Below are positions 1-38,171 of a DNA stretch of 64,000 nt, piece by piece. Numbering within the stretch: the stretch's first letter is position 1; every line of letters begins with the position of its first letter. The stretch lies in contig OZ024744.1 in the NCBI GenBank assembly GCA_964016885.1, positions 13,950,001-14,014,000 of the forward strand, read 5' to 3'. Below the pieces are notes generated by a model. That model ran no database searches, had not been told where the DNA came from, and was given only the letters and a program-made list of their open reading frames with translations. This DNA is from Eledone cirrhosa (Eukaryota). Both the position numbers and the translations under genes were made by a program.

Positions 1-3000
1 TGTCTCAGTAGATCAGAGTGTCACTCCAGTTAAACCCACTCTCTAAATTGAGAGATCACAACTCCCATACTATGGACATGTGGTTAGAATGTCTCTGTAG
101 ATCAGAGAGTCACTCCAGTTAAAGCTACTCTCTAAATTGAGAGATAACAACTCCCATAGTATGGACATGTGGTTAGAATGTCTCAGTAGATCATAGAGTC
201 ACTCCAGTTAAAGCCACTCTCTAAATTGAGAGATCACAACTCCTATACTATGGACATGGGGTTAGAATGTCTCAGTAGATCAGAGAGTCACTCCAGTTAA
301 AGCTTCTCTATAAATTGAGAGATTACAACTCCAATACTATGGACATGTGGTTAGAATGTCTCAGTAGATTAGAGAGTCACTCCAGTTAAAGCCACTCTCT
401 AAATTGAGAGATCACAACTCCAATACTATGGACATGTGGTTAGAATGTCTCAGTAGATCAGAGTGACACTCCAGTTAAAGCCACTCTCTAAATTGAGAGA
501 TCATAACTTCCATACTATGGTCATGTGGTTAGAATGTCTCAGTAGATCAGAGTGTCACTCCAGTTAAAGCTAATCTCTAAATTGAGAGATCACAACTCCA
601 ATACTATGGACATGGGGTTTGAATGTCTCAGTAGATCAGAGAGTCACTTCAGTTAAAGCTACTCTCTAAATTGAGAGATCACAACTCCAATACTATGGAC
701 ATGGGGTTTGAAAGTCTCAGTAGATCAGAGTGTCACTCCAGTTAAAGCTACTCTCTAAATTGAGAGATTACAACTCCAATACTATGGACATGTGGTTAGA
801 ATGTCTCAGTAGATTAGAGAGTCACTCCAGTTAAAGCCACTCTCTAAATTGAGAGATCACAACTCCAATACTATGGACATGTGGTTAGAATGTCTTAGTA
901 GATCAGAGTGTCACTCCAGTTAAAGCCACTCTCTAAATTGAGAGATCATAACTTCCATACTATGGACATGTGGTTAGAATGTCTCAGTAGATCAGAGATT
1001 CACTCCAGTTAAAGCCACTCTCTAAATTGAGAGCTCACAACTCCAATACTATGGTCATGTGGTTAGAATGTCTCAGTAGATCAGAGAGTCACTCCAGTTA
1101 AAGCCACTCTCTAAATTGAGAGATCACAACTCCAATACTATGGACATGGGGTTTGAATGTCTCAGTACATCAGAGTGTCACTCCAGTTAAAGCCACTCTC
1201 TAAATTGAGAGATCACAACTCCAATACTATGGTCATGTGGTTAGAATGTCTCAGAAGATCAGAGAGTCACTCCAGTTAAAGCCACTCTCTAAATTGAGAG
1301 ATCACAACTCCCATACTATGGACATGTGGGTATAATGTCTCAGTAGATCAGAGAGTCACTCCAGTTAAAGCCACTAATTCTCTAAATTGAGAGATCACAA
1401 CTCCCATACTATGGACATGTGGTTAGAATGTCTCAGTAGATCAGGGACTCACTCCAGTTAAAGCCACTCTCTAAATTGAGAGATCACAACTCCAATACTA
1501 TGGACATGGGGTTTGAATGTCTCAGTAGATCAGATTGTCACTCCAGTTAAACCCACTCTCTAAATTGAGAGATCACAACTCCCATACTATGGAGATGTGG
1601 TTAGAATGTCTCTGTAGATCAGAGAGTCACTCCAATTAAAGCTACTCTCTAAATTGAGAGATAACAACTCCCATAGTATGGACATGTGGTTAGAATGTCT
1701 CAGTAGATCATAGAGTCACTCCAGTTAAAGCCACTCTCTAAATTGAGAGATCACAACTCCTATACTATGGACATGGGGTTAGAATGTCTCAGTAGATCAG
1801 AGAGTCACTCCAGTTAAAGCTTCTCTCTAAATTGAGAGATTACAACTCCAATACTATGGACATGTGGTTAGAATGTCTCAGTAGATTAGAGAGTCACTCC
1901 AGTTAAAGCCACTCTCTAAATTGAGAGATCACAACTCCAATACTATGGACATGTGGTTAGAATGTCTCAGTAGATCAGAGTGACACTCCAGTTAAAGCCA
2001 CTCTCTAAATTGAGAGATCATAACTTCCATACTATGGTCATGTGGTTAGAATGTCTCAGTAGATCAGAGTGTCACTCCAGTTAAAGCGAATCTCTAAATT
2101 GAGAGATCACAACTCCAATACTATGGACATGGGGTTTGAATGTCTCAGTAGATCAGAGTGTCACTCCAGTTAAAGCTACTCTCTAAATTGAGAGATCACA
2201 ACTCCAATACTATGGACATGGGGTTTGAATGTCTCAGTAGATCAGAGAGTCACTTCAGTTAAAGCTACTCTCTAAATTGAGAGATCACAACTCCAATACT
2301 ATGGACATGGGGTTTGAAAGTCTCAGTAGATCAGAGTGTCACTCCAGTTAAAGCTACTCTCTAAATTGAGAGATTACAACTCCAATACTATGGACATGTG
2401 GTTAGAATGTCTCAGTAGATTAGAGAGTCACTCCAGTTAAAGCCACTCTCTAAATTGAGAGATCACAACTCCAATACTATGGACATGTGGTTAGAATGTC
2501 TCAGTAGATCAGAGTGTCACTCCAGTTAAAGCCACTCTCTAAATTGAGAGATCATAACTTCCATACTATGGACATGTGGTTAGAATGTCTCAGTAGATCA
2601 GAGAATCACTCCAGTTAAAACTACTCTTTAAATTGAGAGATCACAACTCCTATACTATGGACATGGGTTAGAATGTCTCAGTAGATCAGAGAGTCACTCC
2701 AGTTAAAGCTACTCTCTAAATTGAGAGATCACAACTCCCATACTATGGACATGTGGTTAGAATGTCTCAGTAGATCAGAGAGTCATTCCAGTTAAAGCCA
2801 CTCTCTTAATTGAGAGATCACAACTCCCATACTATGGACGTGTGGTTAGAATGTCTCAGTAGATCAGAGAGTCACTCCAGTTAAAGCCACTCTCTAAATT
2901 CAGAGATCACAACTCCCATACTCTGGACGTGTGGTTAGAATGTCTCAGTACATCAGAGAATCACTCCAGTTAAAACTACTCTCTAAAGTGAGAGATCACA

Positions 3001-6000
3001 ACTCCCATACTATGGACATGTGGTTAGAATGTCTCAGTAGATCAGAGAGTCACTCCAGTTAAAGCTACTCTCTAAATTGAGAGATCACAACTCCCATACT
3101 ATGGACATGTGGTTAGAATGTCTCAGTAGATCAGAGAGTCACTCCAGTTAAAGCTACTCTCTAAATTGAGAGATCACAACTCCTATACTATGGACATGGG
3201 GTTAGAATGTCTCAGTAGATCAGAGTGTCACTCCAGTTAAAGCCACTCTCTAAATTGAGAGATCACAACTCTCATACTATGGACATGTGGTTAGAATGTC
3301 TCAGTAGATCAGAGAGTCACTCCAGTTAAAGCTACTCTCTAAATTGAGAGATCACAACTCCAATACTATGGACATGTGGTTAGAATGTCTCAGTAGATCA
3401 GAGAGTCATTCCAGTTAAAGCCACTCTCTAAATTGAGAGATCACAACTCCCGTACTATGGACGTGTGGTTAGAATGTCTCAGTAGATCAGAGAGTCACTC
3501 TTGTTAAAGCTACTCTCTAAATTGAGAGATCACAACTCCTATACTATGGACATGGGGTTAGAATGTCTCAGTAGATCAGAGTGTCACTCCAGTTAAAGCC
3601 ACTCTCTAAATTGAGAGATCACAACTCCCAAACTATGGACATGTCTTTAGAATGTCTCAGTAGATCAGAGAGTTACTCCAGTTAAAGCTACTCTCTAAAT
3701 TGAGAGATCACAACTCCAATACTATGGACATGGGGTTTGAATGTCTCAGTAGATCAGAGAGTCGCTCCAGTTAAAGCCACTCTCTAAATTGAGAGATCAC
3801 AACTCCAATACTATGGACATGTGGTTAGAATGTCTCAGTAGATCAGAGTGTCACTCCAGTTAAAGCTACTCTCTATATTGAGAGATCACAACTCCCATAC
3901 TATGGACATGTGGTTAGAATGTCTCAGTAGATTAGAGTGTCATTCCAGTTAAAGCTACTCTCTAAATTGAGAGATCACAACTCCAATAATATGGACATGG
4001 GGTTTGATTGTCTCTGTAGATCAGAGTGTCACTCCAGTTAAAGCTACTCTCTAAATTGAGAGGTCACAACTCCAATACTATGGACATGGGATTTGAAAGT
4101 CTCAGTAGATCAGAGTGTCACCCCAGTTAAAGCTACTCTCTAAATTGAGAGATTACAACTCCAATACTATGGACATGTGGTTAGAATGTCTCAGTAGATT
4201 AGAGAGTCACTCCAGTTAAAGCCACTCTCTAAATTGAGAGATCACAACTCCAATACTATGGACATGTGGTTAGAATGTCTCAGTAGATCAGAGTTTCACT
4301 CCAGTTAAAGCTACTCTCTAAATTGAGAGATCACAACTCCAATACTATGGACATGGTGTTTGAATGTCTCAGTAGATCAATGAGTCGCTCAAGTTAAAGC
4401 CACTCTCTAAATTGAGAGATCACAACTCCAATACTATGGACATGTGGTTAGAATGTCTCAGTAGATCAGAGTGTCACTCCAGTTAAAGCTACTCTCTATA
4501 TTGAGAGATCACAACTCCCATACTATGGACATGTGGTTAGAATGTCTCAGTAGATTAGAGTGTCATTCCAGTTAAAGCTACTCTCTAAATTGAGAGATCA
4601 CAACTCCCATACTATTGACATGTGGGTAGAATGTCTCAGTAGATCAGAGAGTCACTCCAGTTAAAGCCACTAATTCTCTAAATTGAGAGATCACAACTCC
4701 CATACTATGGACATATGGTTAGTATGTCTCAGTAGATCAGAGAGTCACTCCAGTTAAAGCCACTCTGTAAATTGACAGATCACAACTTCTATACTATGGA
4801 CATGTGGTTAGAATGTATCAGTAGATCAAAGAGTTACTCCAGTTAAAGCTACTCTCTAAATTCAGAGATCACAACTCCAATACTATGGACATGGGGTTTG
4901 ATTGTCTCAGTAGATCAGAGTGTCACTCCAGTTAAAGCTACTCTCTAAATTGAGAGGTCACAACTCCAATACTATGGACATGGGATTTGAAAGTCTCAGT
5001 AGATCAGAGTGTCACCCCAGTTAAAGCTACTCTCTAAATTGAGAGATTACAACTCCAATTCTATGGACATGTGGTTAGAATGTCTCAGTAGATTAGAGAG
5101 TCACTCCAGTTAAAGCCACTCTCTAAATTGAGAGATCACAACTCCAATACTATGGACATGTGGTTAGAATGTCTCAGTAGATCAGAGTTTCACTCCAGTT
5201 AAAGCTAATCTCTAAATTGAGAGATCACAACTCCAATACTATGGACATGGGGTTTGAATGTCTCAGTAGATCAGAGTGTCACTCCAGTTAAAGCTACTCT
5301 CTAAATTTAGAGATCACAACTCGAATACTATGGACATGGGGTTTGAATGTCTCAGTAGATCAGAGTGTCACTTCAGTTAAAGCTACTCTCTAAATTGAGA
5401 GATCACAACTCCAATACTATGGACATGGTGTTTGAAAGTCTCAGTAGATCAGAGTGTCACTCCAGTTAAAGCTACTCTCTAAATTGAGAGATTACAACTC
5501 CAATACTATGGACATGTGGTTAGAATGTCTCAGTAGATTAGAGAGTCACTCCAGTTAAAGCCACTCTCTAAATTGAGAGATCACAACTCCAATACTATGG
5601 ACATGTGGTTAGAATGTCTCAGTAGATCAGAGTGTCACTCCAGTTAAAGCCACTCTCTAAATTGAGAGATCATAACTTCCATACTATGGACATGTGGTTA
5701 GAATGTCTCAGTAGATCAGAGAGTCACTCCAGTTAAAGCCACTCTCTAAATTGAGAGATCACAACTCCAATACTATGGACATGGGGTCTGAAAGTCTCAG
5801 TACATCAGAGTGTCACTCCAGTTAAAGTTACTCTCTAAATTGAGAGATCACAACTCCAATACTATGGACATGGGGTTTGAATGTCTCAGTAGATCAGAGA
5901 ATCACTCCAGTTAAAGCTACTCTCTAAATTGAGAGATCACAACCCCAATACTATGGACATGGGGTTTGAAAGTCTCAGTAGATCAGAGTGTCACTCCAGT

Positions 6001-9000
6001 TAAAGCTATTCTCTAAATTGAGAGATTACAACTCCAATACTATGGACATGGGGTTTGAATGTCTCAGTAGATCAGAGAGTCACTCCAGTTAAAGCTACTC
6101 TCTAAATTGAGAGATCACAACTCCAATACTATGGACATGGGGTTTGAAAGTCTCAGTAGATCAGAGTGTCACTCCAGTTAAAGCTACTCTCTAAATTGAG
6201 AGATTACAACTCCAATACTATGGACATGGGGTTTGAAAGTCTCAGTAGATCAGAGTGTCACTCCAGTTAAAGCTACTCTCTAAATTGAGAGATTACAACT
6301 CCAATACTATGGACATGTGGTTAGAATGTCTCAGTAGATTAGAGAGTCACTCCAGTTAAAGCCACTCTCTAAATTGAGAGATCACAACTCCAATACTATG
6401 GACATGTGATTAGAATGTCTCAGTAGATTATAGAGTCACTCCAGTTAAAGCCACTCTCTAAATTGAGAGATCACAACTCCAATACTATGGACATGTGGTT
6501 AGAAAGTCTCAGTAGATCAGAGTGTCACTCCAGTTAAAGCTAATCTCTAAATTGAGAGATCACAACTCCAATACTATGGACATGGGGTTTGAATGTCTCA
6601 GTAGATCAGAGTGTCACTCCAGTTAAAGCTACTCTCTAAATTGAGAGATCACAACTCCAATACTATGGACATGGGGTTTGAATGTCTCAGTAGATCAGCG
6701 AGTCACTTCAGTTAAAGCTACTCTCTAAATTGAGAGATCACAACTCCAATACTATGGACATGGGGTTTGAAAGTTTCAGTAGATCAGAGTGTCACTCCAG
6801 TTAAAGCTACTCTCTAAATTGAGAGATTACAACTCCAATACTATGGACATGTGGTTAGAATGTCTTAGTAGATCAGAGTGTCACTCCAGTTAAAGCCACT
6901 CTCTAAATTGAGAGATCATAACTTCCATACTATGGACATGTGGTTAGAATGTCTCAGTAGATCAGAGATTCACTCCAGTTAAAGCCACTCTCTAAATTGA
7001 GAGCTCACAACTCCAATACTATGGTCATGTGGTTAGAATGTCTCAGTAGATCAGAGAGTCACTCCAGTTAAAGCCACTCTCTAAATTGAGAGATCACAAC
7101 TCCAATACTATGGACATGGGGTTTGAATGTCTCAGTACATCAGAGTGTCACTCCAGTTAAAGCCACTCTCTAAATTGAGAGATCACAACTCCAATACTAT
7201 GGTCATGTGGTTAGAATGTCTCAGAAGATCAGAGAGTCACTCCAGTTAAAGCCACTCTCTAAATTGAGAGATCACAACTCCCATACTATGGACATGTGGG
7301 TATAATGTCTCAGTAGATCAGAGAGTCACTCCAGTTAAAGCCACTAATTCTCTAAATTGAGAGATCACAACTCCCATACTATGGACATGTGGTTAGAATG
7401 TCTCAGTAGATCAGAGACTCACTCCAGTTAAAGCCACTCTCTAAATTGAGAGATCACAACTCCAATACTATGGACATGGGGTTTGAATGTCTCAGTAGAT
7501 CAGAGTGTCACTCCAGTTAAACCCACTCTCTAAATTGAGAGATCACAACTCCCATACTATGGACATGTGGTTAGAATGTCTCTGTAGATCAGAGAGTCAC
7601 TCCAGTTAAAGCTACTCTCTAAATTGAGAGATAACAACTCCCATAGTATGGACATGTGGTTAGAATGTCTCAGTAGATCATAGAGTCACTCCAGTTAAAG
7701 CCACTCTCTAAATTGAGAGATCACAACTCCTATACTATGGACATGGGGTTAGAATGTCTCAGTAGATCAGAGAGTCACTCCAGTTAAAGCTTCTCTCTAA
7801 ATTGAGAGATCACAACTCCCATACTATGGACATGTGGTTAGAACGTCTCAGTAGATCAGAGAGTCACTTCAGTTAAAGCCACTCTCTAAATTGAGAGATC
7901 ACAACTCCCATACTATGGACATGTGGTTAGAATGTCTCAGTAGATCAGAGTGTCACTCCAGTTAAAGCTACTCTCTATATTGAGAGATCACAACTCCCAT
8001 ACTATGGACATGTGGTTAGAATGTCTCAGTAGATTAGAGTGTCATTCCAGTTAAAGCTACTCTCTAAATTGAGAGATCACAACTCCCATACTATTGACAT
8101 GTGGGTAGAACGTCTCAGTAGATCAGAGAGTCACTCCAGTTAAAGCCACTAATTCTCTAAATTGAGAGATCACAACTCCCATACTATGGACATATGGTTA
8201 GCATGTCTCAGTAGATCAGAGAGTCACTCCAGTTAAAGCCACTCTGTAAATTGACAGATCACAACTTCTATACTATGGACATGTGGTTAGAATGTCTCAG
8301 TAGATCAGAGAGTTACTCCAGTTAAAGCTACACTCTAAATTGAGAGATCACAACTCCAATACTATGGACATGTGGTTAGAATGTCTCAGTAGATTAGAGA
8401 GTCACTCCAGTTAAAGCCACTCTCTAAATTGAGAGATCACAACTCCAATACTATGGACATGTGATTAGAATGTCTCAGTAGATTATAGAGTCACTCCAGT
8501 TAAAGCCACTCTCTAAATTGAGAGATAACAACTCCAATACTATGGACATGTGGTTAGAAAGTCTCAGTAGATCAGAGTGTCACTCCAGTTAAAGCTAATC
8601 TCTAAATTGAGAGATCACAACTCCAATACTATGGACATGGGGTTTGAATGTCTCAGTAGATCAGAGTGTCACTCCAGTTAAAGCTACTCTCTAAATTGAG
8701 AGATTACAACTCCAATACTATGGACATGTGGTTAGAATGTCTCAGTAGATTAGAGAGTCACTCCAGTTAAAGCCACTCTCTAAATTGAGAGATTACAACT
8801 CCAATACTATGGACATGTGGTTAGAATGTCTCAGTAGATTAGAGAGTCACTCCAGTTAAAGCCACTCTCTAAATTGAGAGATCACAACTCCAATACTATG
8901 GACATGTGGTTAGAATGTCTTAGTAGATCAGAGTGTCACTCCAGTTAAAGCCACTCTCTAAATTGAGAGATCATAGCTTCCATACTATGGACATGTGGTT

Positions 9001-12000
9001 AGAATGTCTCAGTAGATCAGAGATTCACTCCAGTTAAAGCCACTCTCTAAATTGAGAGCTCACAACTCCAATACTATGGTCATGTGGTTAGAATGTCTCA
9101 GTAGATCAGAGAGTCACTCCAGTTAAAGCCACTCTCTAAATTGAGAGATCACAACTCCAATACTATGGACATGGGGTTTGAATGTCTCAGTACATCAGAG
9201 TGTCACTCCAGTTAAAGCCACTCTCTAAATTGAGAGATCACAACTCCAATACTATGGTCATGTGGTTAGAATGTCTCAGAAGATCAGAGAGTCACTCCAG
9301 TTAAAGCCACTCTCTAAATTGAGAGATCACAACTCCCATACTATGGACATGTGGGTATAATGTCTCAGTAGATCAGAGAGTCACTCCAGTTAAAGCCACT
9401 AATTCTCTAAATTGAGAGATCACAACTCCCATACTATGGACATGTGGTTAGAATGTCTCAGTAGATCAGGGACTCACTCCAGTTAAAGCCACTCTCTAAA
9501 TTGAGAGATCACAACTCCAATACTATGGACATGGGGTTTGAATGTCTCAGTAGATCAGAGTGTCACTCCAGTTAAACCCACTCTCTAAATTGAGAGATCA
9601 CAACTCCCATACTATGGAGATGTGGTTAGAATGTCTCTGTAGATCAGAGAGTCACTCCAATTAAAGCTACTCTCTAAATTGAGAGATAACAACTCCCATA
9701 GTATGGACATGTGGTTAGAATGTCTCAGTAGATCATAGAGTCACTCCAGTTAAAGCCACTCTCTAAATTGAGAGATCACAACTCCTATACTATGGACATG
9801 GGGTTAGAATGTCTCAGTAGATCAGAGAGTCACTCCAGTTAAAGCTTCTCTCTAAATTGAGAGATTACAACTCCAATACTATGGACATGTGGTTAGAATG
9901 TCTCAGTAGATTAGAGAGTCACTCCAGTTAAAGCCACTCTCTAAATTGAGAGATCACAACTCCAATACTATGGACATGTGGTTAGAATGTCTCAGTAGAT
10001 CAGAGTGACACTCCAGTTAAAGCCACTCTCTAAATTGAGAGATCATAACTTCCATACTATGGTCATGTGGTTAGAATGTCTCAGTAGATCAGAGTGTCAC
10101 TCCAGTTAAAGCGAATCTCTAAATTGAGAGATCACAACTCCAATACTATGGACATGGGGTTTGAATGTCTCAGTAGATCAGAGTGTCACTCCAGTTAAAG
10201 CTACTCTCTAAATTGAGAGATCACAACTCCAATACTATGGACATGGGGTTTGAATGTCTCAGTAGATCAGAGAGTCACTTCAGTTAAAGCTACTCTCTAA
10301 ATTGAGAGATCACAACTCCAATACTATGGACATGGTGTTTGAAAGTCTCAGTAGATCAGAGTGTCACTCCAGTTAAAGCTACTCTCTAAATTGAGAGATT
10401 ACAACTCCAATACTATGGACATGTGGTTAGAATGTCTCAGTAGATTAGAGAGTCACTCCAGTTAAAGCCACTCTCTAAATTGAGAGATCACAACTCCAAT
10501 ACTATGGACATGTGGTTAGAATGTCTCAGTAGATCAGAGTGTCACTCCAGTTAAAGCCACTCTCTAAATTGAGAGATCATAACTTCCATACTATGGACAT
10601 GTGGTTAGAATGTCTCAGTAGATCAGAGAATCACTCCAGTTAAAACTACTCTTTAAATTGAGAGATCACAACTCCTATACTATGGACATGGGTTAGAATG
10701 TCTCAGTAGATCAGAGTGTCACTCCAGTTAAAGCCACTCTCTAAATTGAGAGATCACAACTCCAATACTATGGACATGGGGTTTGAATGTCTCAGTAGAT
10801 CAGAGAGTCACTCCAGTTAAAGCTACTCTCTAAATTGAGAGATCACAACTCCCATACTATGGACATGTGGTTAGAATGTCTCAGTAGATCAGAGAGTCAT
10901 TCCAGTTAAAGCCACTCTCTTAATTGAGAGATCACAACTCCCATACTATGGACGTGTGGTTAGAATGTCTCAGTAGATCAGAGAGTCACTCCAGTTAAAG
11001 CCACTCTCTAAATTCAGAGATCACAACTCCCATACTCTGGACGTGTGGTTAGAATGTCTCAGTACATCAGAGAATCACTCCAGTTAAAACTACTCTCTAA
11101 AGTGAGAGATCACAACTCCCATACTATGGACATGTGGTTAGAATGTCTCAGTAGATCAGAGAGTCACTCCAGTTAAAGCTACTCTCTAAATTGAGAGATC
11201 ACAACTCCCATACTATGGACATGTGGTTAGAATGTCTCAGTAGATCAGAGAGTCACTCCAGTTAAAGCTACTCTCTAAATTGAGAGATCACAACTCCTAT
11301 ACTATGGACATGGGGTTAGAATGTCTCAGTAGATCAGAGTGTCACTCCAGTTAAAGCCACTCTCTAAATTGAGAGATCACAACTCTCATACTATGGACAT
11401 GTGGTTAGAATGTCTCAGTAGATCAGAGAGTCACTCCAGTTAAAGCTACTCTCTAAATTGAGAGATCACAACTCCAATACTATGGACATGTGGTTAGAAT
11501 GTCTCAGTAGATCAGAGAGTCATTCCAGTTAAAGCCACTCTCTAAATTGAGAGATCACAACTCCCGTACTATGGACGTGTGGTTAGAATGTCTCAGTAGA
11601 TCAGAGAGTCACTCTTGTTAAAGCTACTCTCTAAATTGAGAGATCACAACTCCTATACTATGGACATGGGGTTAGAATGTCTCAGTAGATCAGAGTGTCA
11701 CTCCAGTTAAAGCCACTCTCTAAATTGAGAGATCACAACTCCCAAACTATGGACATGTCTTTAGAATGTCTCAGTAGATCAGAGAGTTACTCCAGTTAAA
11801 GCTACTCTCTAAATTGAGAGATCACAACTCCAATACTATGGACATGGGGTTTGAATGTCTCAGTAGATCAGAGAGTCGCTCCAGTTAAAGCCACTCTCTA
11901 AATTGAGAGATCACAACTCCAATACTATGGACATGTGGTTAGAATGTCTCAGTAGATCAGAGTGTCACTCCAGTTAAAGCTACTCTCTATATTGAGAGAT

Positions 12001-15000
12001 CACAACTCCCATACTATGGACATGTGGTTAGAATGTCTCAGTAGATTAGAGTGTCATTCCAGTTAAAGCTACTCTCTAAATTGAGAGATCACAACTCCAA
12101 TAATATGGACATGGGGTTTGATTGTCTCTGTAGATCAGAGTGTCACTCCAGTTAAAGCTACTCTCTAAATTGAGAGGTCACAACTCCAATACTATGGACA
12201 TGGGATTTGAAAGTCTCAGTAGATCAGAGTGTCACCCCAGTTAAAGCTACTCTCTAAATTGAGAGATTACAACTCCAATACTATGGACATGTGGTTAGAA
12301 TGTCTCAGTAGATTAGAGAGTCACTCCAGTTAAAGCCACTCTCTAAATTGAGAGATCACAACTCCAATACTATGGACATGTGGTTAGAATGTCTCAGTAG
12401 ATCAGAGTTTCACTCCAGTTAAAGCTACTCTCTAAATTGAGAGATCACAACTCCAATACTATGGACATGGTGTTTGAATGTCTCAGTAGATCAATGAGTC
12501 GCTCAAGTTAAAGCCACTCTCTAAATTGAGAGATCACAACTCCAATACTATGGACATGTGGTTAGAATGTCTCAGTAGATCAGAGTGTCACTCCAGTTAA
12601 AGCTACTCTCTATATTGAGAGATCACAACTCCCATACTATGGACATGTGGTTAGAATGTCTCAGTAGATTAGAGTGTCATTCCAGTTAAAGCTACTCTCT
12701 AAATTGAGAGATCACAACTCCCATACTATTGACATGTGGGTAGAATGTCTCAGTAGATCAGAGAGTCACTCCAGTTAAAGCCACTAATTCTCTAAATTGA
12801 GAGATCACAACTCCCATACTATGGACATATGGTTAGTATGTCTCAGTAGATCAGAGAGTCACTCCAGTTAAAGCCACTCTGTAAATTGACAGATCACAAC
12901 TTCTATACTATGGACATGTGGTTAGAATGTATCAGTAGATCAAAGAGTTACTCCAGTTAAAGCTACTCTCTAAATTCAGAGATCACAACTCCAATACTAT
13001 GGACATGGGGTTTGATTGTCTCAGTAGATCAGAGTGTCACTCCAGTTAAAGCTACTCTCTAAATTGAGAGGTCACAACTCCAATACTATGGACATGGGAT
13101 TTGAAAGTCTCAGTAGATCAGAGTGTCACCCCAGTTAAAGCTACTCTCTAAATTGAGAGATTACAACTCCAATTCTATGGACATGTGGTTAGAATGTCTC
13201 AGTAGATTAGAGAGTCACTCCAGTTAAAGCCACTCTCTAAATTGAGAGATCACAACTCCAATACTATGGACATGTGGTTAGAATGTCTCAGTAGATCAGA
13301 GTTTCACTCCAGTTAAAGCTAATCTCTAAATTGAGAGATCACAACTCCAATACTATGGACATGGGGTTTGAATGTCTCAGTAGATCAGAGTGTCACTCCA
13401 GTTAAAGCTACTCTCTAAATTGAGAGATCACAACTCGAATACTATGGACATGGGGTTTGAATGTCTCAGTAGATCAGAGTGTCACTTCAGTTAAAGCTAC
13501 TCTCTAAATTGAGAGATCACAACTCCAATACTATGGACATGGTGTTTGAAAGTCTCAGTAGATCAGAGTGTCACTCCAGTTAAAGCTACTCTCTAAATTG
13601 AGAGATTACAACTCCAATACTATGGACATGTGGTTAGAATGTCTCAGTAGATTAGAGAGTCACTCCAGTTAAAGCCACTCTCTAAATTGAGAGATCACAA
13701 CTCCAATACTATGGACATGTGGTTAGAATGTCTCAGTAGATCAGAGTGTCACTCCAGTTAAAGCCACTCTCTAAATTGAGAGATCATAACTTCCATACTA
13801 TGGACATGTGGTTAGAATGTCTCAGTAGATCAGAGAGTCACTCCAGTTAAAGCCACTCTCTAAATTGAGAGATCACAACTCCAATACTATGGACATGGGG
13901 TCTGAAAGTCTCAGTACATCAGAGTGTCACTCCAGTTAAAGTTACTCTCTAAATTGAGAGATCACAACTCCAATACTATGGACATGGGGTTTGAATGTCT
14001 CAGTAGATCAGAGAATCACTCCAGTTAAAGCTACTCTCTAAATTGAGAGATCACAACCCCAATACTATGGACATGGGGTTTGAAAGTCTCAGTAGATCAG
14101 AGTGTCACTCCAGTTAAAGCTATTCTCTAAATTGAGAGATTACAACTCCAATACTATGGACATGGGGTTTGAATGTCTCAGTAGATCAGAGAGTCACTCC
14201 AGTTAAAGCTACTCTCTAAATTGAGAGATCACAACTCCAATACTATGGACATGGGGTTTGAAAGTCTCAGTAGATCAGAGTGTCACTCCAGTTAAAGCTA
14301 CTCTCTAAATTGAGAGATTACAACTCCAATACTATGGACATGGGGTTTGAAAGTCTCAGTAGATCAGAGTGTCACTCCAGTTAAAGCTACTCTCTAAATT
14401 GAGAGATTACAACTCCAATACTATGGACATGTGGTTAGAATGTCTCAGTAGATTAGAGAGTCACTCCAGTTAAAGCCACTCTCTAAATTGAGAGATCACA
14501 ACTCCAATACTATGGACATGTGATTAGAATGTCTCAGTAGATTATAGAGTCACTCCAGTTAAAGCCACTCTCTAAATTGAGAGATCACAACTCCAATACT
14601 ATGGACATGTGGTTAGAAAGTCTCAGTAGATCAGAGTGTCACTCCAGTTAAAGCTAATCTCTAAATTGAGAGATCACAACTCCAATACTATGGACATGGG
14701 GTTTGAATGTCTCAGTAGATCAGAGTGTCACTCCAGTTAAAGCTACTCTCTAAATTGAGAGATCACAACTCCAATACTATGGACATGGGGTTTGAATGTC
14801 TCAGTAGATCAGCGAGTCACTTCAGTTAAAGCTACTCTCTAAATTGAGAGATCACAACTCCAATACTATGGACATGGGGTTTGAAAGTTTCAGTAGATCA
14901 GAGTGTCACTCCAGTTAAAGCTACTCTCTAAATTGAGAGATTACAACTCCAATACTATGGACATGTGGTTAGAATGTCTTAGTAGATCAGAGTGTCACTC

Positions 15001-18000
15001 CAGTTAAAGCCACTCTCTAAATTGAGAGATCATAACTTCCATACTATGGACATGTGGTTAGAATGTCTCAGTAGATCAGAGATTCACTCCAGTTAAAGCC
15101 ACTCTCTAAATTGAGAGCTCACAACTCCAATACTATGGTCATGTGGTTAGAATGTCTCAGTAGATCAGAGAGTCACTCCAGTTAAAGCCACTCTCTAAAT
15201 TGAGAGATCACAACTCCAATACTATGGACATGGGGTTTGAATGTCTCAGTACATCAGAGTGTCACTCCAGTTAAAGCCACTCTCTAAATTGAGAGATCAC
15301 AACTCCAATACTATGGTCATGTGGTTAGAATGTCTCAGAAGATCAGAGAGTCACTCCAGTTAAAGCCACTCTCTAAATTGAGAGATCACAACTCCCATAC
15401 TATGGACATGTGGGTATAATGTCTCAGTAGATCAGAGAGTCACTCCAGTTAAAGCCACTAATTCTCTAAATTGAGAGATCACAACTCCCATACTATGGAC
15501 ATGTGGTTAGAATGTCTCAGTAGATCAGAGACTCACTCCAGTTAAAGCCACTCTCTAAATTGAGAGATCACAACTCCAATACTATGGACATGGGGTTTGA
15601 ATGTCTCAGTAGATCAGAGTGTCACTCCAGTTAAACCCACTCTCTAAATTGAGAGATCACAACTCCCATACTATGGACATGTGGTTAGAATGTCTCTGTA
15701 GATCAGAGAGTCACTCCAGTTAAAGCTACTCTCTAAATTGAGAGATAACAACTCCCATAGTATGGACATGTGGTTAGAATGTCTCAGTAGATCATAGAGT
15801 CACTCCAGTTAAAGCCACTCTCTAAATTGAGAGATCACAACTCCTATACTATGGACATGGGGTTAGAATGTCTCAGTAGATCAGAGAGTCACTCCAGTTA
15901 AAGCTTCTCTCTAAATTGAGAGATCACAACTCCCATACTATGGACATGTGGTTAGAACGTCTCAGTAGATCAGAGAGTCACTTCAGTTAAAGCCACTCTC
16001 TAAATTGAGAGATCACAACTCCCATACTATGGACATGTGGTTAGAATGTCTCAGTAGATCAGAGTGTCACTCCAGTTAAAGCTACTCTCTATATTGAGAG
16101 ATCACAACTCCCATACTATGGACATGTGGTTAGAATGTCTCAGTAGATTAGAGTGTCATTCCAGTTAAAGCTACTCTCTAAATTGAGAGATCACAACTCC
16201 CATACTATTGACATGTGGGTAGAACGTCTCAGTAGATCAGAGAGTCACTCCAGTTAAAGCCACTAATTCTCTAAATTGAGAGATCACAACTCCCATACTA
16301 TGGACATATGGTTAGCATGTCTCAGTAGATCAGAGAGTCACTCCAGTTAAAGCCACTCTGTAAATTGACAGATCACAACTTCTATACTATGGACATGTGG
16401 TTAGAATGTCTCAGTAGATCAGAGAGTTACTCCAGTTAAAGCTACACTCTAAATTGAGAGATCACAACTCCAATACTATGGACATGTGGTTAGAATGTCT
16501 CAGTAGATTAGAGAGTCACTCCAGTTAAAGCCACTCTCTAAATTGAGAGATCACAACTCCAATACTATGGACATGTGGTTAGAATGTCTCAGTAGATCAG
16601 AGTGTCACTCCAGTTAAAGCCACTCTCTAAATTGAGAGATCATAACTTCCATACTATGGACATGTGGTTAGAATGTCTCAGTAGATCAGAGAGTCACTCC
16701 AGTTAAAGCCACTCTCTAAATTGAGAGATCACAACTCCAATACTATGGACATGGGGTCTGAAAGTCTCAGTACATCAGAGTGTCACTCCAGTTAAAGTTA
16801 CTCTCTAAATTGAGAGATCACAACTCCAATACTATGGACATGGGGTTTGAATGTCTCAGTAGATCAGAGAATCACTCCAGTTAAAGCTACTCTCTAAATT
16901 GAGAGATCACAACCCCAATACTATGGACATGGGGTTTGAAAGTCTCAGTAGATCAGAGTGTCACTCCAGTTAAAGCTATTCTCTAAATTGAGAGATTACA
17001 ACTCCAATACTATGGACATGGGGTTTGAATGTCTCAGTAGATCAGAGAGTCACTCCAGTTAAAGCTACTCTCTAAATTGAGAGATCACAACTCCAATACT
17101 ATGGACATGGGGTTTGAAAGTCTCAGTAGATCAGAGTGTCACTCCAGTTAAAGCTACTCTCTAAATTGAGAGATTACAACTCCAATACTATGGACATGGG
17201 GTTTGAATGTCTCAGTAGATCAGAGTGTCACTCCAGTTAAAGCTACTCTCTAAATTGAGAGATTACAACTCCAATACTATGGACATGTGGTTAGAATGTC
17301 TCAGTAGATTAGAGAGTCACTCCAGTTAAAGCCACTCTCTAAATTGAGAGATCACAACTCCAATACTATGGACATGTGATTAGAATGTCTCAGTAGATTA
17401 TAGAGTCACTCCAGTTAAAGCCACTCTCTAAATTGAGAGATCACAACTCCAATACTATGGACATGTGGTTAGAAAGTCTCAGTAGATCAGAGTGTCACTC
17501 CAGTTAAAGCTAATCTCTAAATTGAGAGATCACAACTCCAATACTATGGACATGGGGTTTGAATGTCTCAGTAGATCAGAGTGTCACTCCAGTTAAAGCT
17601 ACTCTCTAAATTGAGAGATCACAACTCCAATACTATGGACATGGGGTTTGAATGTCTCAGTAGATCAGCGAGTCACTTCAGTTAAAGCTACTCTCTAAAT
17701 TGAGAGATCACAACTCCAATACTATGGACATGGGGTTTGAAAGTTTCAGTAGATCAGAGTGTCACTCCAGTTAAAGCTACTCTCTAAATTGAGAGATTAC
17801 AACTCCAATACTATGGACATGTGGTTAGAATGTCTCAGTAGATTAGAGAGTCACTCCAGTTAAAGCCACTCTCTAAATTGAGAGATCACAACTCCAATAC
17901 TATGGACATGTGGTTAGAATGTCTTAGTAGATCAGAGTGTCACTCCAGTTAAAGCCACTCTCTAAATTGAGAGATCATAACTTCCATACTATGGACATGT

Positions 18001-21000
18001 GGTTAGAATGTCTCAGTAGATCAGAGATTCACTCCAGTTAAAGCCACTCTCTAAATTGAGAGCTCACAACTCCAATACTATGGTCATGTGGTTAGAATGT
18101 CTCAGTAGATCAGAGAGTCACTCCAGTTAAAGCCACTCTCTAAATTGAGAGATCACAACTCCAATACTATGGACATGGGGTTTGAATGTCTCAGTAGATC
18201 AGAGTGTCACTCCAGTTAAAGCCACTCTCTAAATTGAGAGATCACAACTCCAATACTATGGTCATGTGGTTAGAATGTCTCAGAAGATCAGAGAGTCACT
18301 CCAGTTAAAGCCACTCTCTAAATTGAGAGATCACAACTCCCACACTATGGACATGTGGGTATAATGTCTCAGTAGATCAGAGAGTCACTCCAGTTAAAGC
18401 CACTAATTCTCTAAATTGAGAGATCACAACTCCCATACTATGGACATGTGGTTAGAATGTCTCAGTAGATCAGAGACTCACTCCAGTTAAAGCCACTCTC
18501 TAAATTGAGAGATCACAACTCCAATACTATGGACATGGGGTTTGAATGTCTCAGTAGATCAGAGTGTCACTCCAGTTAAACCCACTCTCTAAATTGAGAG
18601 ATCACAACTCCCATACTATGGACATGTGGTTAGAATGTCTCTGTAGATCAGAGAGTCACTCCAGTTAAAGCTACTCTCTAAATTGAGAGATAACAACTCC
18701 CATAGTATGGACATGTGGTTAGAATGTCTCAGTAGATCATAGAGTCACTCCAGTTAAAGCCACTCTCTAAATTGAGAGATCACAACTCCTATACTATGGA
18801 CATGGGGTTAGAATGTCTCAGTAGATCAGAGAGTCACTCCAGTTAAAGCTTCTCTCTAAATTGAGAGATCACAACTCCCATACTATGGACATGTGGTTAG
18901 AACGTCTCAGTAGATCAGAGAGTCACTTCAGTTAAAGCCACTCTCTAAATTGAGAGATCACAACTCCCATACTATGGACATGTGGTTAGAATGTCTCAGT
19001 AGATCAGAGTGTCACTCCAGTTAAAGCTACTCTCTATATTGAGAGATCACAACTCCCATACTATGGACATGTGGTTAGAATGTCTCAGTAGATTAGAGTG
19101 TCATTCCAGTTAAAGCTACTCTCTAAATTGAGAGATCACAACTCCCATACTATTGACATGTGGGTAGAACGTCTCAGTAGATCAGAGAGTCACTCCAGTT
19201 AAAGCCACTAATTCTCTAAATTGAGAGATCACAACTCCCATACTATGGACATATGGTTAGTATGTCTCAGTAGATCAGAGAGTCACTCCAGTTAAAGCCA
19301 CTCTGTAAATTGACAGATCACAACTTCTATACTATGGACATGTGGTTAGAATGTCTCAGTAGATCAGAGAGTTACTCCAGTTAAAGCTACACTCTAAATT
19401 GAGAGATCACAACTCCAATACTATGGACATGTGGTTAGAATGTCTCAGTAGATTAGAGAGTCACTCCAGTTAAAGCCACTCTCTAAATTGAGAGATCACA
19501 ACTCCAATACTATGGACATGTGATTAGAATGTCTCAGTAGATTATAGAGTCACTCCAGTTAAAGCCACTCTCTAAATTGAGAGATCACAACTCCAATACT
19601 ATGGACATGTGGTTAGAAAGTCTCAGTAGATCAGAGTGTCACTCCAGTTAAAGCTAATCTCTAAATTGAGAGATCACAACTCCAATACTATGGACATGGG
19701 GTTTGAATGTCTCAGTAGATCAGAGTGTCACTCCAGTTAAAGCTACTCTCTAAATTGAGAGATCACAACTCCAATACTATGGACATGGGGTTTGAATGTC
19801 TCAGTAGATCAGAGAGTCACTTCAGTTAAAGCTACTCTCTAAATTGAGAGATCACAACTCCAATACTATGGACATGGGGTTTGAAAGTCTCAGTAGATCA
19901 GAGTGTCACTCCAGTTAAAGCTACTCTCTAAATTGAGAGATTACAACTCCAATACTATGGACATGTGGTTAGAATGTCTCAGTAGATTAGAGAGTCACTC
20001 CAGTTAAAGCCACTCTCTAAATTGAGAGATCACAACTCCAATACTATGGACATGTGGTTAGAATGTCTTAGTAGATCAGAGTGTCACTCCAGTTAAAGCC
20101 ACTCTCTAAATTGAGAGATCATAACTTCCATACTATGGACATGTGGTTAGAATGTCTCAGTAGATCAGAGATTCACTCCAGTTAAAGCCACTCTCTAAAT
20201 TGAGAGCTCACAACTCCAATACTATGGTCATGTGGTTAGAATGTCTCAGTAGATCAGAGAGTCACTCCAGTTAAAGCCACTCTCTAAATTGAGAGATCAC
20301 AACTCCAATACTATGGACATGGGGTTTGAATGTCTCAGTACATCAGAGTGTCACTCCAGTTAAAGCCACTCTCTAAATTGAGAGATCACAACTCCAATAC
20401 TATGGTCATGTGGTTAGAATGTCTCAGAAGATCAGAGAGTCACTCCAGTTAAAGCCACTCTCTAAATTGAGAGATCACAACTCCCATACTATGGACATGT
20501 GGGTATAATGTCTCAGTAGATCAGAGAGTCACTCCAGTTAAAGCCACTAATTCTCTAAATTGAGAGATCACAACTCCCATACTATGGACATGTGGTTAGA
20601 ATGTCTCAGTAGATCAGAGACTCACTCCAGTTAAAGCCACTCTCTAAATTGAGAGATCACAACTCCAATACTATGGACATGGGGTTTGAATGTCTCAGTA
20701 GATCAGAGTGTCACTCCAGTTAAACCCACTCTCTAAATTGAGAGATCACAACTCCCATACTATGGACATGTGGTTAGAATGTCTCTGTAGATCAGAGAGT
20801 CACTCCAGTTAAAGCTTCTCTCTAAATTGAGAGATCACAACTCCCATACTATGGACATGTGGTTAGAACGTCTCAGTAGATCAGAGAGTCACTTCAGTTA
20901 AAGCCACTCTCTAAATTGAGAGATCACAACTCCCATACTATGGACATGTGGTTAGAATGTCTCAGTAGATCAGAGTGTCACTCCAGTTAAAGCTACTCTC

Positions 21001-24000
21001 TATATTGAGAGATCACAACTCCCATACTATGGACATGTGGTTAGAATGTCTCAGTAGATTAGAGTGTCATTCCAGTTAAAGCTACTCTCTAAATTGAGAG
21101 ATCACAACTCCCATACTATTGACATGTGGGTAGAACGTCTCAGTAGATCAGAGAGTCACTCCAGTTAAAGCCACTAATTCTCTAAATTGAGAGATCACAA
21201 CTCCCATACTATGGACATATGGTTAGTATGTCTCAGTAGATCAGAGAGTCACTCCAGTTAAAGCCACTCTGTAAATTGACAGATCACAACTTCTATACTA
21301 TGGACATGTGGTTAGAATGTCTCAGTAGATCAGAGAGTTACTCCAGTTAAAGCTACACTCTAAATTGAGAGATCACAACTCCAATACTATGGACATGGGG
21401 TTTGATTGTCTCAGTAGATCAGAGTGTCACTCCAGTTAAAGCTACTCTCTAAATTGAGAGGTCACAACTCCAATACTATGGACATGGGATTTGAAAGTCT
21501 CAGTAGATCAGAGTGTCACCCCAGTTAAAGCGACTCTCTAAATTGAGAGATTACAACTCCAATACTATGGACATGGGGTTTGAAAGTCTCAGTAGATCAG
21601 AGTGTCACTCCAGGTAAAGCTACTCTCTAAATTGAGAGATTACAACTCCAATACTATGGACATGTGGTTAGAATGTCTCAGTAGATTAGAGAGTCACTCC
21701 AGTTAAAGCCACTCTCTAAATTGAGAGATCACAACTCCAATACTATGGACATGTGATTAGAATGTCTCAGTAGATTATAGAGTCACTCCAGTTAAAGCCA
21801 CTCTCTAAATTGAGAGATCACAACTCCAATACTATGGACATGTGGTTAGAAAGTCTCAGTAGATCAGAGTGTCACTCCAGTTAAAGCTAATCTCTAAATT
21901 GAGAGATCACAACTCCAATACTATGGACATGGGGTTTGAATGTCTCAGTAGATCAGAGTGTCACTCCAGTTAAAGCTACTCTCTAAATTGAGAGATCACA
22001 ACTCCAATACTATGGACATGGGGTTTGAATGTCTCAGTAGATCAGAGAGTCACTTCAGTTAAAGCTACTCTCTAAATTGAGAGATCACAACTCCAATACT
22101 ATGGACATGGGGTTTGAAAGTCTCAGTAGATCAGAGTGTCACTCCAGTTAAAGCTACTCTCTAAATTGAGAGATTACAACTCCAATACTATGGACATGTG
22201 GTTAGAATGTCTCAGTAGATCAGAGTGTCACTCCAGTTAAAGCTACTCTCTATATTGAGAGATCACAACTCCCATACTATGGACATGTGGTTAGAATGTC
22301 TCAGTAGATTAGAGTGTCATTCCAGTTAAAGCTACTCTCTAAATTGAGAGATCACAACTCCCATACTATTGACATGTGGGTAGAATGTCTCAGTAGATCA
22401 GAGAGTCACTCCAGTTAAAGCCACTCTGTAAATTGACAGATCACAACTTCCATACTATGGACATGTGGTTAGAATGTCTCAGTAGATCAGAGAGTTACTC
22501 CAGTTAAAGCTACTCTCTAAATTGAGAGATCACAACTCCAATAATATGGACATGGGGTTTGATTGTCTCTGTAGATCAGAGTGTCACTCCAGTTAAAGCT
22601 ACTCTCTAAATTGAGAGGTCACAACTCCAATACTATGGACATGGGATTTGAAAGTCTCAGTAGATCAGAGTGTCACCCCAGTTAAAGCTACTCTCTAAAT
22701 TGAGAGATTACAACTCCAATACTATGGACATGTGGTTAGAATGTCTCAGTAGATTAGAGAGTCACTCCAGTTAAAGCCACTCTCTAAATTGAGAGATCAC
22801 AACTCCAATACTATGGACATGTGGTTAGAATGTCTCAGTAGATCAGAGTTTCACTCCAGTTAAAGCTACTCTCTAAATTGAGAGATCACAACTCCAATAC
22901 TATGGACATGGTGTTTGAATGTCTCAGTAGATCAATGAGTCGCTCAAGTTAAAGCCACTCTCTAAATTGAGAGATCACAACTCCAATACTATGGACATGT
23001 GGTTAGAATGTCTCAGTAGATCAGAGTGTCACTCCAGTTAAAGCTACTCTCTATATTGAGAGATCACAACTCCCATACTATGGACATGTGGTTAGAATGT
23101 CTCAGTAGATTAGAGTGTCATTCCAGTTAAAGCTACTCTCTAAATTGAGAGATCACAACTCCCATACTATTGACATGTGGGTAGAATGTCTCAGTAGATC
23201 AGAGAGTCACTCCAGTTAAAGCCACTAATTCTCTAAATTGAGAGATCACAACTCCCATACTATGGACATATGGTTAGTATGTCTCAGTAGATCAGAGAGT
23301 CACTCCAGTTAAAGCCACTCTGTAAATTGACAGATCACAACTTCTATACTATGGACATGTGGTTAGAATGTCTCAGTAGATCAAAGAGTTACTCCAGTTA
23401 AAGCTACTCTCTAAATTGAGAGATCACAACTCCAATACTATGGACATGGGGTTTGATTGTCTCAGTAGATCAGAGTGTCACTCCAGTTAAAGCTACTCTC
23501 TAAATTGAGAGGTCACAACTCCAATACTATGGACATGGGATTTGAAAGTCTCAGTAGATCAGAGTGTCACCCCAGTTAAAGCTACTCTCTAAATTGAGAG
23601 ATTACAACTCCAATTCTATGGACATGTGGTTAGAATGTCTCAGTAGATTAGAGAGTCACTCCAGTTAAAGCCACTCTCTAAATTGAGAGATCACAACTCC
23701 AATACTATGGACATGTGGTTAGAATGTCTCAGTAGATCAGAGTTTCACTCCAGTTAAAGCTAATCTCTAAATTGAGAGATCACAACTCCAATACTATGGA
23801 CATGGGGTTTGAATGTCTCAGTAGATCAGAGTGTCACTCCAGTTAAAGCTACTCTCTAAATTGAGAGATCACAACTCGAATACTATGGACATGGGGTTTG
23901 AATGTCTCAGTAGATCAGAGTGTCACTTCAGTTAAAGCTACTCTCTAAATTGAGAGATCACAACTCCAATACTATGGACATGGTGTTTGAAAGTCTCAGT

Positions 24001-27000
24001 AGATCAGAGTGTCACTCCAGTTAAAGCTACTCTCTAAATTGAGAGATTACAACTCCAATATTATGGACATGTAGTTAGAATGTCTCAGTAGATTAGAGAG
24101 TCACTCCAGTTAAAGCCACTCTCTAAATTGAGAGTTCACAACTCCAATACTATGGACATGTGGTTAGAATGTCTCAGTAGATCAGAGTGTCACTCCAGTT
24201 AAAGCCACTCTCTAAATTGAGAGATCATAACTTCCATACTATGGACATGTGGTTAGAATGTCTCAGTAGATCAGAGAGTCACTCCAGTTAAAGCCACTCA
24301 CTAAATTGAGAGATCACAACTCCAATACTATGGACATGGGGTCTGAAAGTCTCAGTACATCAGAGTGTCACTCCAGTTAAAGTTACTCTCTAAATTGAGA
24401 GATCACAACTCCAATACTTTGGACATGGGGTTTGAATGTCTCAGTAGATCAGAGAATCACTCCAGTTAAAGCTACTCTCTAAATTGAGAGATCACAACCC
24501 CAATACTATGGACATGGGGTTTGAAAGTCTCAGTAGATCAGAGTGTCACTCCAGTTAAAGCTATTCTCTAAATTGAGAGATTACAACTCCAATACTATGG
24601 ACATGGGATTTGAATGTCTCAGTAGATCAGAGAGTCACTCCAGTTAAGGCTACTCTCTAAATTGAGAGATCACAACTCCAATACTATGGACATGGGGTTT
24701 GAAAGTCTCAGTAGATCAGAGTGTCACTCCAGTTAAAGCTACTCTCTAAATTGAGAGATTACAACTCCAATACTATGGACATGGGGTTTGAAAGTCTCAG
24801 TAGATCAGAGTGTCACTCCAGTTAAAGCTACTCTCTAAATTGAGAGATTACAACTCCAATACTATGGACATGTGGTTAGAATGTCTCAGTAGATTAGAGA
24901 GTCACTCCAGTTAAAGCCACTCTCTAAATTGAGAGATCACAACTCCAATACTATGGACATGTGATTAGAATGTCTCAGTAGATTATAGAGTCACTCCAGT
25001 TAAAGCCACTCTCTAAATTGAGAGATCACAACTCCAATACTATGGACATGTGGTTAGAAAGTCTCAGTAGATCAGAGTGTCACTCCAGTTAAAGCTAATC
25101 TCTAAATTGAGAGATTACAACTCCAATACTATGGACATGGGGTTTGAATGTCTCAGTAGATCAGAGTGTCACTCCAGTTAAAGCTACTCTCTAAATTGAG
25201 AGATCACAACTCCAATACTATGGACATGGGGTTTGAATGTCTCAGTAGATCAGAGAGTCACTTCAGTTAAAGCTACTCTCTAAATTGAGAGATCACAACT
25301 CCAATACTATGGACATGGGGTTTGAAAGTCTCAGTAGATCAGAGTGTCACTCCAGTTAAAGCTACTCTCTAAATTGAGAGATTACAACTCCAATACTATG
25401 GACATGTGGTTAGAATGTCTCAGTAGATTAGAGAGTCACTCCAGTTAAAGCCACTCTCTAAATTGAGAGATCACAACTCCAATACTATGGACATGTGGTT
25501 AGAATGTCTTAATAGATCAGAGTGTCACTCCAGTTAAAGCCACTCTCTAAATTGAGAGATCATAACTTCCATACTATGGACATGTGGTTAGAATGTCTCA
25601 GTAGATCAGAGATTCACTCCAGTTAAAGCCACTCTCTAAATTGAGAGCTCACAACTCCAATACTATGGTCATGTGGTTAGAATGTCTCAGTAGATCAGAG
25701 AGTCACTCCAGTTAAAGCCACTCTCTAAATTGAGAGATCACAACTCCAATACTATGGACATGGGGTTTGAATGTCTCAGTACATCAGAGTGTCACTCCAG
25801 TTAAAGCCACTCTCTAAATTGAGAGATCACAACTCCAATACTATGGTCATGTGGTTAGAATGTCTCAGAAGATCAGAGAGTCACTCCAGTTAAAGCCACT
25901 CTCTAAATTGAGAGATCACAACTCCCATACTATGGACATGTGGGTATAATGTCTCAGTAGATCAGAGAGTCACTCCAGTTAAAGCCACTAATTCTCTAAA
26001 TTGAGAGATCACAACTCCCATACTATGGACATGTGGTTAGAATGTCTCAGTAGATCAGAGACTCACTCCAGTTAAAGCCACCCTCTAAATTGAGAGATCA
26101 CAACTCCAATACTATGGACATGGGGTTTGAATGTCTCAGTAGATCAGAGTGTCACTCCAGTTAAACCCACTCTCTAAATTGAGAGATCACAACTCCCATA
26201 CTATGGACATGTGGTTAGAATGTCTCTGTAGATCAGAGAGTCACTCCAGTTAAAGCTACTCTCTAAATTGAGAGATAACAACTCCCATAGTATGGACATG
26301 TGGTTAGAATGTCTCAGTAGATCATAGAGTCACTCCAGTTAAAGCCACTCTCTAAATTGAGAGATCACAACTCCTATACTATGGACATGGGGTTAGAATG
26401 TCTCAGTAGATCAGAGAGTCACTCCAGTTAAAGCTTCTCTCTAAATTGAGAGATCACAACTCCCATACTATGGACATGTGGTTAGAACGTCTCAGTAGAT
26501 CAGAGAGTCACTTCAGTTAAAGCCACTCTCTAAATTGAGAGATCACAACTCGCATACTATGGACATGTGGTTAGAATGTCTCAGTAGATCAGAGTGTCAC
26601 TCCAGTTAAAGCTACTCTCTATATTGAGAGATCACAACTCCCATACTATGGACATGTGGTTAGAATGTCTCAGTAGATTAGAGTGTCATTCCAGTTAAAG
26701 CTACTCTCTAAATTGAGAGATCACAACTCCCATACTATTGACATGTGGGTAGAACGTCTCAGTAGATCAGAGAGTCACTCCAGTTAAAGCCACTAATTCT
26801 CTAAATTGAGAGATCACAACTCCCATACTATGGACATATGGTTAGTATGTCTCAGTAGATCAGAGAGTCACTCCAGTTAAAGCCACTCTGTAAATTGACA
26901 GATCACAACTTCTATACTATGGACATGTGGTTAGAATGTCTCAGTAGATCAGAGAGTTACTCCAGTTAAAGCTACACTCTAAATTGAGAGATCACAACTC

Positions 27001-37531: not shown

Positions 37532-37620
37532 GCCAAAGCTGACGTTGGTTGGATTTGAACTCAGAATGTAAAAATACCAGAGTTGCATTTTATCCAACAC
37601 TTAACTCCATTCTGCCAGTA
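37532..37620 (+). mobile_element. SINE fragment (3' part)
   Basis: GCCAAAGCTGACGTTGGTTGGATTTGAACTCAGAATG aligns with GGCAAAGTTAACCTCGG.GGGATTTGAACTCAGAATG in the copies at 37.9 kb and 49.8 kb. Confidence 0.65.
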
Positions 37621-38011: not shown

Positions 38012-38171
38012 ATAATGTATGTATGCATGGATCAGTAACTGACATACAGCGTTTCTAGGGTATTTCATTAAACGTGGTGGAGCATCTCCTCTCCAACACT
38101 GTATACAGCAGATTTCTCCCAGAAAAGGATAGAGAAGGAGAGAATGGAACTGAGAATGTGATATAAAGGAA

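Follow-up and report, generated by a model that had tools for sequence, protein, structure and literature searches.

A rare 93-bp monomer probably retains the reading frame of a parent LINE in a satellite array of Eledone cirrhosa dominated by an 89-bp unit

The window, a stretch of 64,000 nt from contig OZ024744.1 of Eledone cirrhosa, begins within a satellite array that reaches its left end, where the array stays open (Table 1). The array is a long head-to-tail run of a unit homologous to part of a transposable element. Cutting at 417 anchors gave 416 whole monomers, 395 of them 89 bp, 19 of them 93 bp and two of them 88 bp in length. Higher-order blocks and duplications of 7.4-8.1 kb make up the array, with duplicated runs of 51-65 monomers recurring at offsets of 83-91 monomers. 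Higher-order structure and concerted evolution are apparent from these runs, which reach 65 monomers, from a mean pairwise monomer distance of 6.2 of 89 and from the failure of 22 of 28 common-site pairs in the four-gamete test. A long 18-nt motif occurs exactly 19 times, once in each 93-bp monomer. The first-pass annotation had estimated about 19 monomers of the longer form, which agrees with the exact count (19/416, each 93 bp), and its example, 1341..1433, does delimit a 93-bp unit, though with the phase shifted. The short motif quoted there is found exactly in 161 monomers and as a C>T variant in 145 more. The two 88-bp monomers (2586-2673 and 10611-10698) have a 1-bp deletion in common that was copied by an 8-kb duplication; this is the sole other indel in the array.

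Table 1. Features of the satellite array and the adjoining LINE tail (positions in the window).
Feature	Position	Strand	Remark
Satellite array, period 89, ~417 copies	1..37195	+	TRF; monomer splitting
First 93-bp unit in LINE frame, 31 codons (stop, IRESLQLKPLIL, stop, IERSQLPYYGHVVRMSQ)	1344..1436	+	
Four bases in 93-bp units, missing from 89-bp units	1375..1378	+	equivalently 1376-1379; one-base placement ambiguity
TAA stop common to both monomer types	1383..1385	+	homologs have a residue, mostly R
Slot A, 9 identical 93-bp copies	1336..33445	+	constant neighbours
Slot A starts	1336, 7306, 9361, 15420, 18365, 20509, 25950, 28094, 33353	+	
Slot B, 10 copies of 93 bp	4632..34250	+	slot A background plus 2-3 private changes
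Slot B starts	4632, 8111, 12746, 16225, 19170, 21136, 23187, 26755, 30590, 34158	+	
Long-motif starts, first ten	1371, 4667, 7341, 8146, 9396, 12781, 15455, 16260, 18400, 19205	+	
Long-motif starts, last nine	20544, 21171, 23222, 25985, 26790, 28129, 30625, 33388, 34193	+	
Terminal monomer, 89-bp type, running on into LINE tail	37099..37195	+	
Unamplified 3' end of parent LINE ORF, in frame with IERSQL	37196..37375	+	
(GAA)n microsatellite tail, ~53 units, LINE 3' end	37374..37531	+	TRF

In the 93-bp monomer IRESLQLKPLIL, a stop and IERSQLPYYGHVVRMSQ are read in a single frame, whereas in the 89-bp monomers the two halves lie in two different frames. The earlier claim that only the longer form keeps both protein halves together is thereby borne out. 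The four extra bases are not a tandem duplication of either neighbour. The TAA stop is present in 399 of the 416 monomers and a second, TAG stop in 392, and all 19 of the 93-bp monomers carry both.

The origin of the unit is visible at the right end of the array. The last monomer continues in frame for 180 bp and then into (GAA)n (37099-37531), and the terminal unit extends in this way through the parent element to its end. A phmmer query of the 77 tail residues, which included nothing upstream of IERSQL, matched 9 of 1.84 billion proteins at E values up to 0.001, while a direct word-index search with the tail returned no match. In a second round, an alignment of six first-round proteins and the tail retrieved 398 longer and 1,239 similar-sized relatives, the best 120 of each being listed. 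Full-length homologs carry endonuclease and reverse transcriptase (RT) domains in one ORF of about 1,030-1,060 aa: in the three tested (P0015, P0027 and P0068) Exo_endo_phos and RVT_1 scored above the gathering threshold and the C-termini align with monomer and tail. Closest to the tail among the matches listed is P0168, with 53% identity over the tail; relative to it the tail has two stops and lacks 3 residues at one place and 5 at another. Pfam has no family for the tail or for P0168, and an Atlas search with the P0168 C-terminus pointed, as a lead only, to eukaryotic 'endonuclease-reverse transcriptase' clusters at 0.94. Neither blastn nor tblastn found a second copy of the parent LINE in 37201-64000, and the 21 Rfam matches over 36000-40000 were all sub-threshold and on the dinucleotide runs at 38727-39770, with none on array or tail. 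One clear LINE protein of the set, P0062, is labelled as coming from a Fusobacterium species; that assembly is probably contaminated with eukaryotic DNA.

Judged by the endonuclease and RT of its homologs in one ORF and by the stops and gaps of its tail, the parent is a dead APE-type LINE. It may belong to the RTE clade and be Rex3/Expander-like, a putative label that fits the single ORF and the GAA tail; the homologs themselves bear no clade label, the window contains no RT domain of this element, and the element's 5' end falls outside the window. A short-tandem-repeat 3' tail, as for the RTE clade, is present in the (GAA)n at 37374-37531, and a single ORF is described as an RTE trait in PMC13295347. 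Shared with Rex3/Expander-type RTE LINEs, as far as their published description goes, are a C-terminal domain homologous to single-ORF endonuclease and RT proteins and a microsatellite 3' tail that includes GAA. Rex3 proper, of teleosts, was nonetheless ruled out: its signature is (GAA)2 followed by a GATG/GATC tandem tail (PMC6274825), whereas the tail here consists of GAA/GGA only. All that survives of the dead element is one 93-bp piece and the terminal 180 bp of its ORF.

The reading-frame register was then read against the homologs. In the first-round matches P0004, P0005, P0010 and P0011 four residues separate the P position from IERSQ, as in the 93-bp monomer; P0009 has three, and the four other matches of that round were either out of frame or not anchorable. 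Among the matches listed, 243 of 246 proteins were anchored and 241 had at least 17 residues upstream, P0009 (three) and P0011 (four) being omitted for their short upstream parts. In these 241 listed homologs the spacing is four residues in 233 and three in one, with no motif call in seven, and a second motif, IRxxL, stands 13 residues before IERSQ in 239 (in P0006 by chance). The set is redundant, shrinking to 38 rows at below 80% identity, and upstream columns of first-round hits were part of the profile used in the second round, so the spacing count is not fully independent; it suggests more independence than it has, but its direction is unchanged. In a pairwise BLASTP alignment to P0168 the 93-bp frame is identical at 24 of 30 residues with 0 gaps (E 4e-15). 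The codon retained in the 93-bp monomers is I, and the listed homologs have L in 232 of 238 and I in 3; I is one base away from L, and this fits the other differences of the unit.

An active parent had to be in frame, and this makes the 89-bp unit a frameshifting loss however the 93-bp monomers arose. Derivation of the 89-bp unit by deletion consequently appears almost certain from the frame comparison, in agreement with the polarity first proposed for this array (93 bp as the LINE state, 89 bp as a 4-bp deletion), for which homolog spacing, the gap-free 24/30 alignment, the simulated insertions and the six substitution sites described below all speak. That the four bases have been retained by descent in the 93-bp monomers is a separate claim, which on the same kind of evidence we consider probable, at roughly nine chances in ten. 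The parent family is known through proteins, the nearest 53% identical over the tail.

The 93-bp monomers occupy two slots of the higher-order repeat. Slot A consists of one monomer type (type 11) and slot B of three (types 32, 39 and 64). The 7.4-8.1 kb duplications multiplied these four types in two slots with fixed neighbours, and the nineteen copies therefore have one origin and an effective sample of one event. The number of long monomers on which the first-pass annotation relied is thus right, but they are not independent witnesses. Higher-order duplication likewise accounts for their homogeneity (mean pairwise distance 1.6 vs 6.2). The 2-3 private changes of slot B exceed the mean of 1.5 at non-common sites in 89-bp monomers, which argues against a recent arrival of the 93-bp lineage.

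Six common sites could be polarised by the protein frame (monomer positions 1, 19, 37, 57, 81 and 86). The family-like allele is present at all six in 13 of the 19 long monomers, the remaining 6 differing by one minor allele, compared with 94 of 395 89-bp monomers (19/101 types). Among 105 types the slot A background ranks third in centrality, and it sits at zero branch length on an unresolved hub of the monomer tree. Such a pattern would follow had the deletion come first and the common derived alleles then arisen on 89-bp backgrounds, and we infer that it is worth a factor of about 4-5 for the polarity. The derived substitutions reach 16-51% and the deletion 95%; at position 37 (e.g. 37135) the derived allele is the majority, at 51%. 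A further site, position 66, has A in 256, C in 134 and T in 26 monomers and is the second base of a codon whose residue is R in homologs; no allele restores R, so the site cannot be polarised.

Of the pairs that fail the four-gamete test, 16 have their rarest haplotype in at least 4 copies. The monomers are recombinant mosaics, and what is ancestral is accordingly an allele and not a monomer: the proposal of an ancestral 93-bp monomer probably holds for the four bases but does not extend to the unit as a whole. The monomer tree (106 types, 89 columns) has 27 of 103 inner branches starred and 58 open. A one-clade test for the 93-bp monomers (AU p 0.51) neither established nor rejected a clade. 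The tree is uninformative for polarity, and nesting of the long monomers among the short ones, which had been suggested as a refutation, is not a valid test here.

Some observations at the right edge speak against retention. The unit that adjoins the LINE tail measures 89 bp, and there is no 93-bp monomer among the last 33. Old units are to be expected at the edge of an array, and in the edge zone (36031-37195) the last 12 whole monomers include 9 of the 25 single-copy types, mostly with 1-4 differences from the 93-bp background. But two derived alleles mark the terminal unit, one at position 19 and one at position 37, which is 3 bases from the indel; this implies that the unit's 5' half was overwritten and is not that of the founder.

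Together these data suggest the following history. A dead copy of an RTE-like LINE would have undergone internal tandem duplication of 93 bp, exactly 31 codons, in its C-terminal coding region, perhaps helped by microhomology between a pair of glutamate codons, 31 residues apart in homologs, at the unit's two boundaries. The two stops would have been fixed before the common ancestor of today's monomers, with the four bases still present. The 4-bp loss, the earliest surviving change, may then have occurred in one monomer early in array growth, and unequal exchange, gene conversion and multi-kilobase duplication would have spread the 89-bp allele, presumably neutrally, to 95% of copies, while the ancestral allele persisted in two slots of the higher-order repeat. 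The 93-bp form is on this account ancestral to the array yet already dead. The gap between the deletion at 95% and the six derived substitutions at 16-51% could also mean that the spread was not neutral, conversion or unequal exchange having favoured the shorter allele. We consider this rather unlikely; in one array, the deletion being simply the oldest change possibly explains the 95% as well, and biased spread is not needed. If the deletion proved to have risen independently in other arrays or individuals too, the satellite would offer a directly polarised test of deletion-biased molecular drive.

Among the explanations that compete with retention by descent, the one that survives best is an array that had become entirely 89 bp and regained the four bases by conversion from a sister array or a decayed copy that had kept the 93-bp state, in which case they would be ancestral without having descended locally. 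Recombination in the array is heavy, its edge units are all 89 bp, and conversion from a related element into an array derived from a transposable element is documented for maize CRM1TR in the part of PMC3648361 that describes it. However, four bases downstream of the indel all 19 of the 93-bp monomers have the stop of the satellite itself, so that the tract from an intact LINE donor would have to end within those four bases, and the rest of the window contains no other copy of the parent LINE. Such a re-import appears improbable, although a sister array outside the window may still have been the donor.

The four bases could instead have come back by chance: the founder was already short, and 4 bp later inserted into a single 89-bp monomer restored size, place and residue type, possibly through slippage templated by the similar CT-AAATT a little downstream. 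In favour of this, the long monomers are few and homogeneous and could form one clade, sequence close by is similar to the inserted bases, and the terminal unit is 89 bp. The homogeneity, however, follows from higher-order duplication, the terminal unit was overwritten, and the array contains one other indel in all. Insertions were simulated at all 89 positions of the background and scored, gap-free and with a fixed stop penalty, against a profile of 35 non-redundant homologs from which three mis-registered rows (P0006, P0010 and P0236) were left out. The 93-bp monomer scored 69.3 bits, and the same background without the four bases 20.1. The observed score was matched by 69 of 22,784 4-bp insertions (0.30%) and approached within 5 bits by 598 (2.6%), and was reached by none of the insertions of 1, 2, 3 or 5 bp (0/356, 0/1,424, 0/5,696 and 0/91,136). 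Tandem duplications of 1-10 bp never reached it (0/890) and came within 5 bits in 5 cases. A slip in the adjacent CT run adds 4 bases in the right register and scores 65.6 bits, but with other bases than those observed. With an earlier profile that included the mis-registered rows the 4-bp count was 105/23,040, and locally templated 4-mers fitted as well in 24 of 5,271 cases. Assuming that 5-10% of insertions are 4 bp long, we estimate the chance of such a mimic at about 1e-4 to 3e-3 per insertion event. Restoration of the family register by chance is thus very improbable.

A parent subfamily shorter by one codon would have founded a 90-bp unit, from which 89 bp arose by a 1-bp deletion and 93 bp by a separate 3-bp insertion. 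P0009 and P0236 have three residues at this place and a KLT word as in the tail. In a tree of 51 rows with the trait columns omitted, however, the tail groups with P0168, P0011 and P0007 (support 87/60, weak), whereas P0009 and P0236 fall inside a starred 17-row clade (96/93) from which the tail is excluded; the tail's nearest rows have the four-residue register, none of the 416 monomers is 90 bp long, and the scenario needs two events and, on top of them, a return by chance to the register of the majority. We give this alternative hardly any weight. Long satellite arrays are hard to assemble and copy numbers may be off, but an artefact of sequencing or assembly is just as implausible: the same four bases recur 19 times, next to fixed neighbours and together with linked private substitutions, and they restore a protein register that no error process can know.

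Two functional candidates were rejected. Although the 89-bp form completes a 5-bp hairpin stem next to the indel, the folding energies (-2.9 vs -1.9 kcal/mol; z -1.5 and -0.35) are within those of shuffles. A coding function does not agree with two stops in all 93-bp monomers, and synonymous changes are not in excess (28 of 99 variants vs 60 of 267 possible; p 0.18). We see no sign of function in the repeat, which looks neutral and non-coding.

Satellite variants are usually unrootable, and it is common to equate the ancestor with the majority consensus. In this array the conserved spacing of a LINE protein serves as an outgroup without parent DNA, and the protein frame polarises seven segregating characters. 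At two of them, the 4-bp deletion (95%) and position 37 (51%), the majority consensus is derived. The approach should suit any satellite cut from coding sequence, and it yields a polarised frequency spectrum for the array. We found no paper in the open-licence literature that polarises a satellite from a LINE reading frame and none that contains the 18-nt motif of the monomer; a text search for the protein motif gave unrelated papers alone among the matches listed, papers retrieved on octopus satellites were likewise unrelated, and the main text of PMC13282606 does not mention satellites. The protein frame had been put forward as a rare route to polarity. It does work here, but the use of a parent to polarise a satellite derived from a transposable element is not new, as the account of the maize arrays in PMC3648361 already indicates.

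Satellites that derive from transposable elements and end in a longer terminal unit are already known, and this array is a further case. The squamate SINE-derived satellites (sSats) are alike in being arrays of an internal non-LTR piece with a longer terminal unit that reaches the element's end; as portrayed in the relevant part of PMC10702118, they have up to 1000 units per locus, a unit of 126-151 nt and homogenisation in long arrays. The present array differs in its unit of 89/93 bp and in its LINE coding source, which makes the protein frame usable. Maize CRM1TR/CRM4TR are likewise arrays of a single retroelement whose variants are read against parent alleles; the portion of PMC3648361 concerned traces them to Ty3/gypsy LTR/UTR sequence, with 97-98% identity to parents that are still extant and with gene conversion as the main source of variation. 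There the comparison is made at the DNA level, whereas here the parent is decayed and known through protein homologs alone. An origin from LINE fragments is shared with the common cetacean satellite (LINE-1), chicken HinfI and Cen repeats (CR1/CR1-C) and PROsat (LINE-1), listed for cetaceans, chicken and Phodopus, which come from different LINE clades; no RTE-derived satellite stands among these table rows of PMC6947457.

Several other elements lie to the right of the array. A long inverted repeat (40104-41249 and 45771-46961), with an arm of 697 nt that is 100% complementary and about 1.15 kb at 94%, surrounds two minus-strand ORFs at 43743-45876. We take these ORFs to be Penelope-like, and Pfam gave no match for them. 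A second fragment on the minus strand, at 62211-63361, is presumably also Penelope-like, with no Pfam match for 62564-63358. A Gypsy-like LTR retrotransposon on the minus strand (51938-56800) has RT, RNase H and integrase domains in two overlapping ORFs and 173-nt direct repeats at 51938 and 56628 (97%). It lies within 329-nt inverted repeats (51079-51407 and 58316-58644, 95%), and these flanks suggest that it may have inserted into a DNA transposon. At 60144-60710 there is a 192-nt inverted repeat, 99% complementary, with arms 183 nt apart and (TA)n flanks, which could be MITE-like or a local fold-back duplication. Finally, a dispersed SINE-like repeat is present in several copies (37825-38250, 49748-49899 and 60936-61012).
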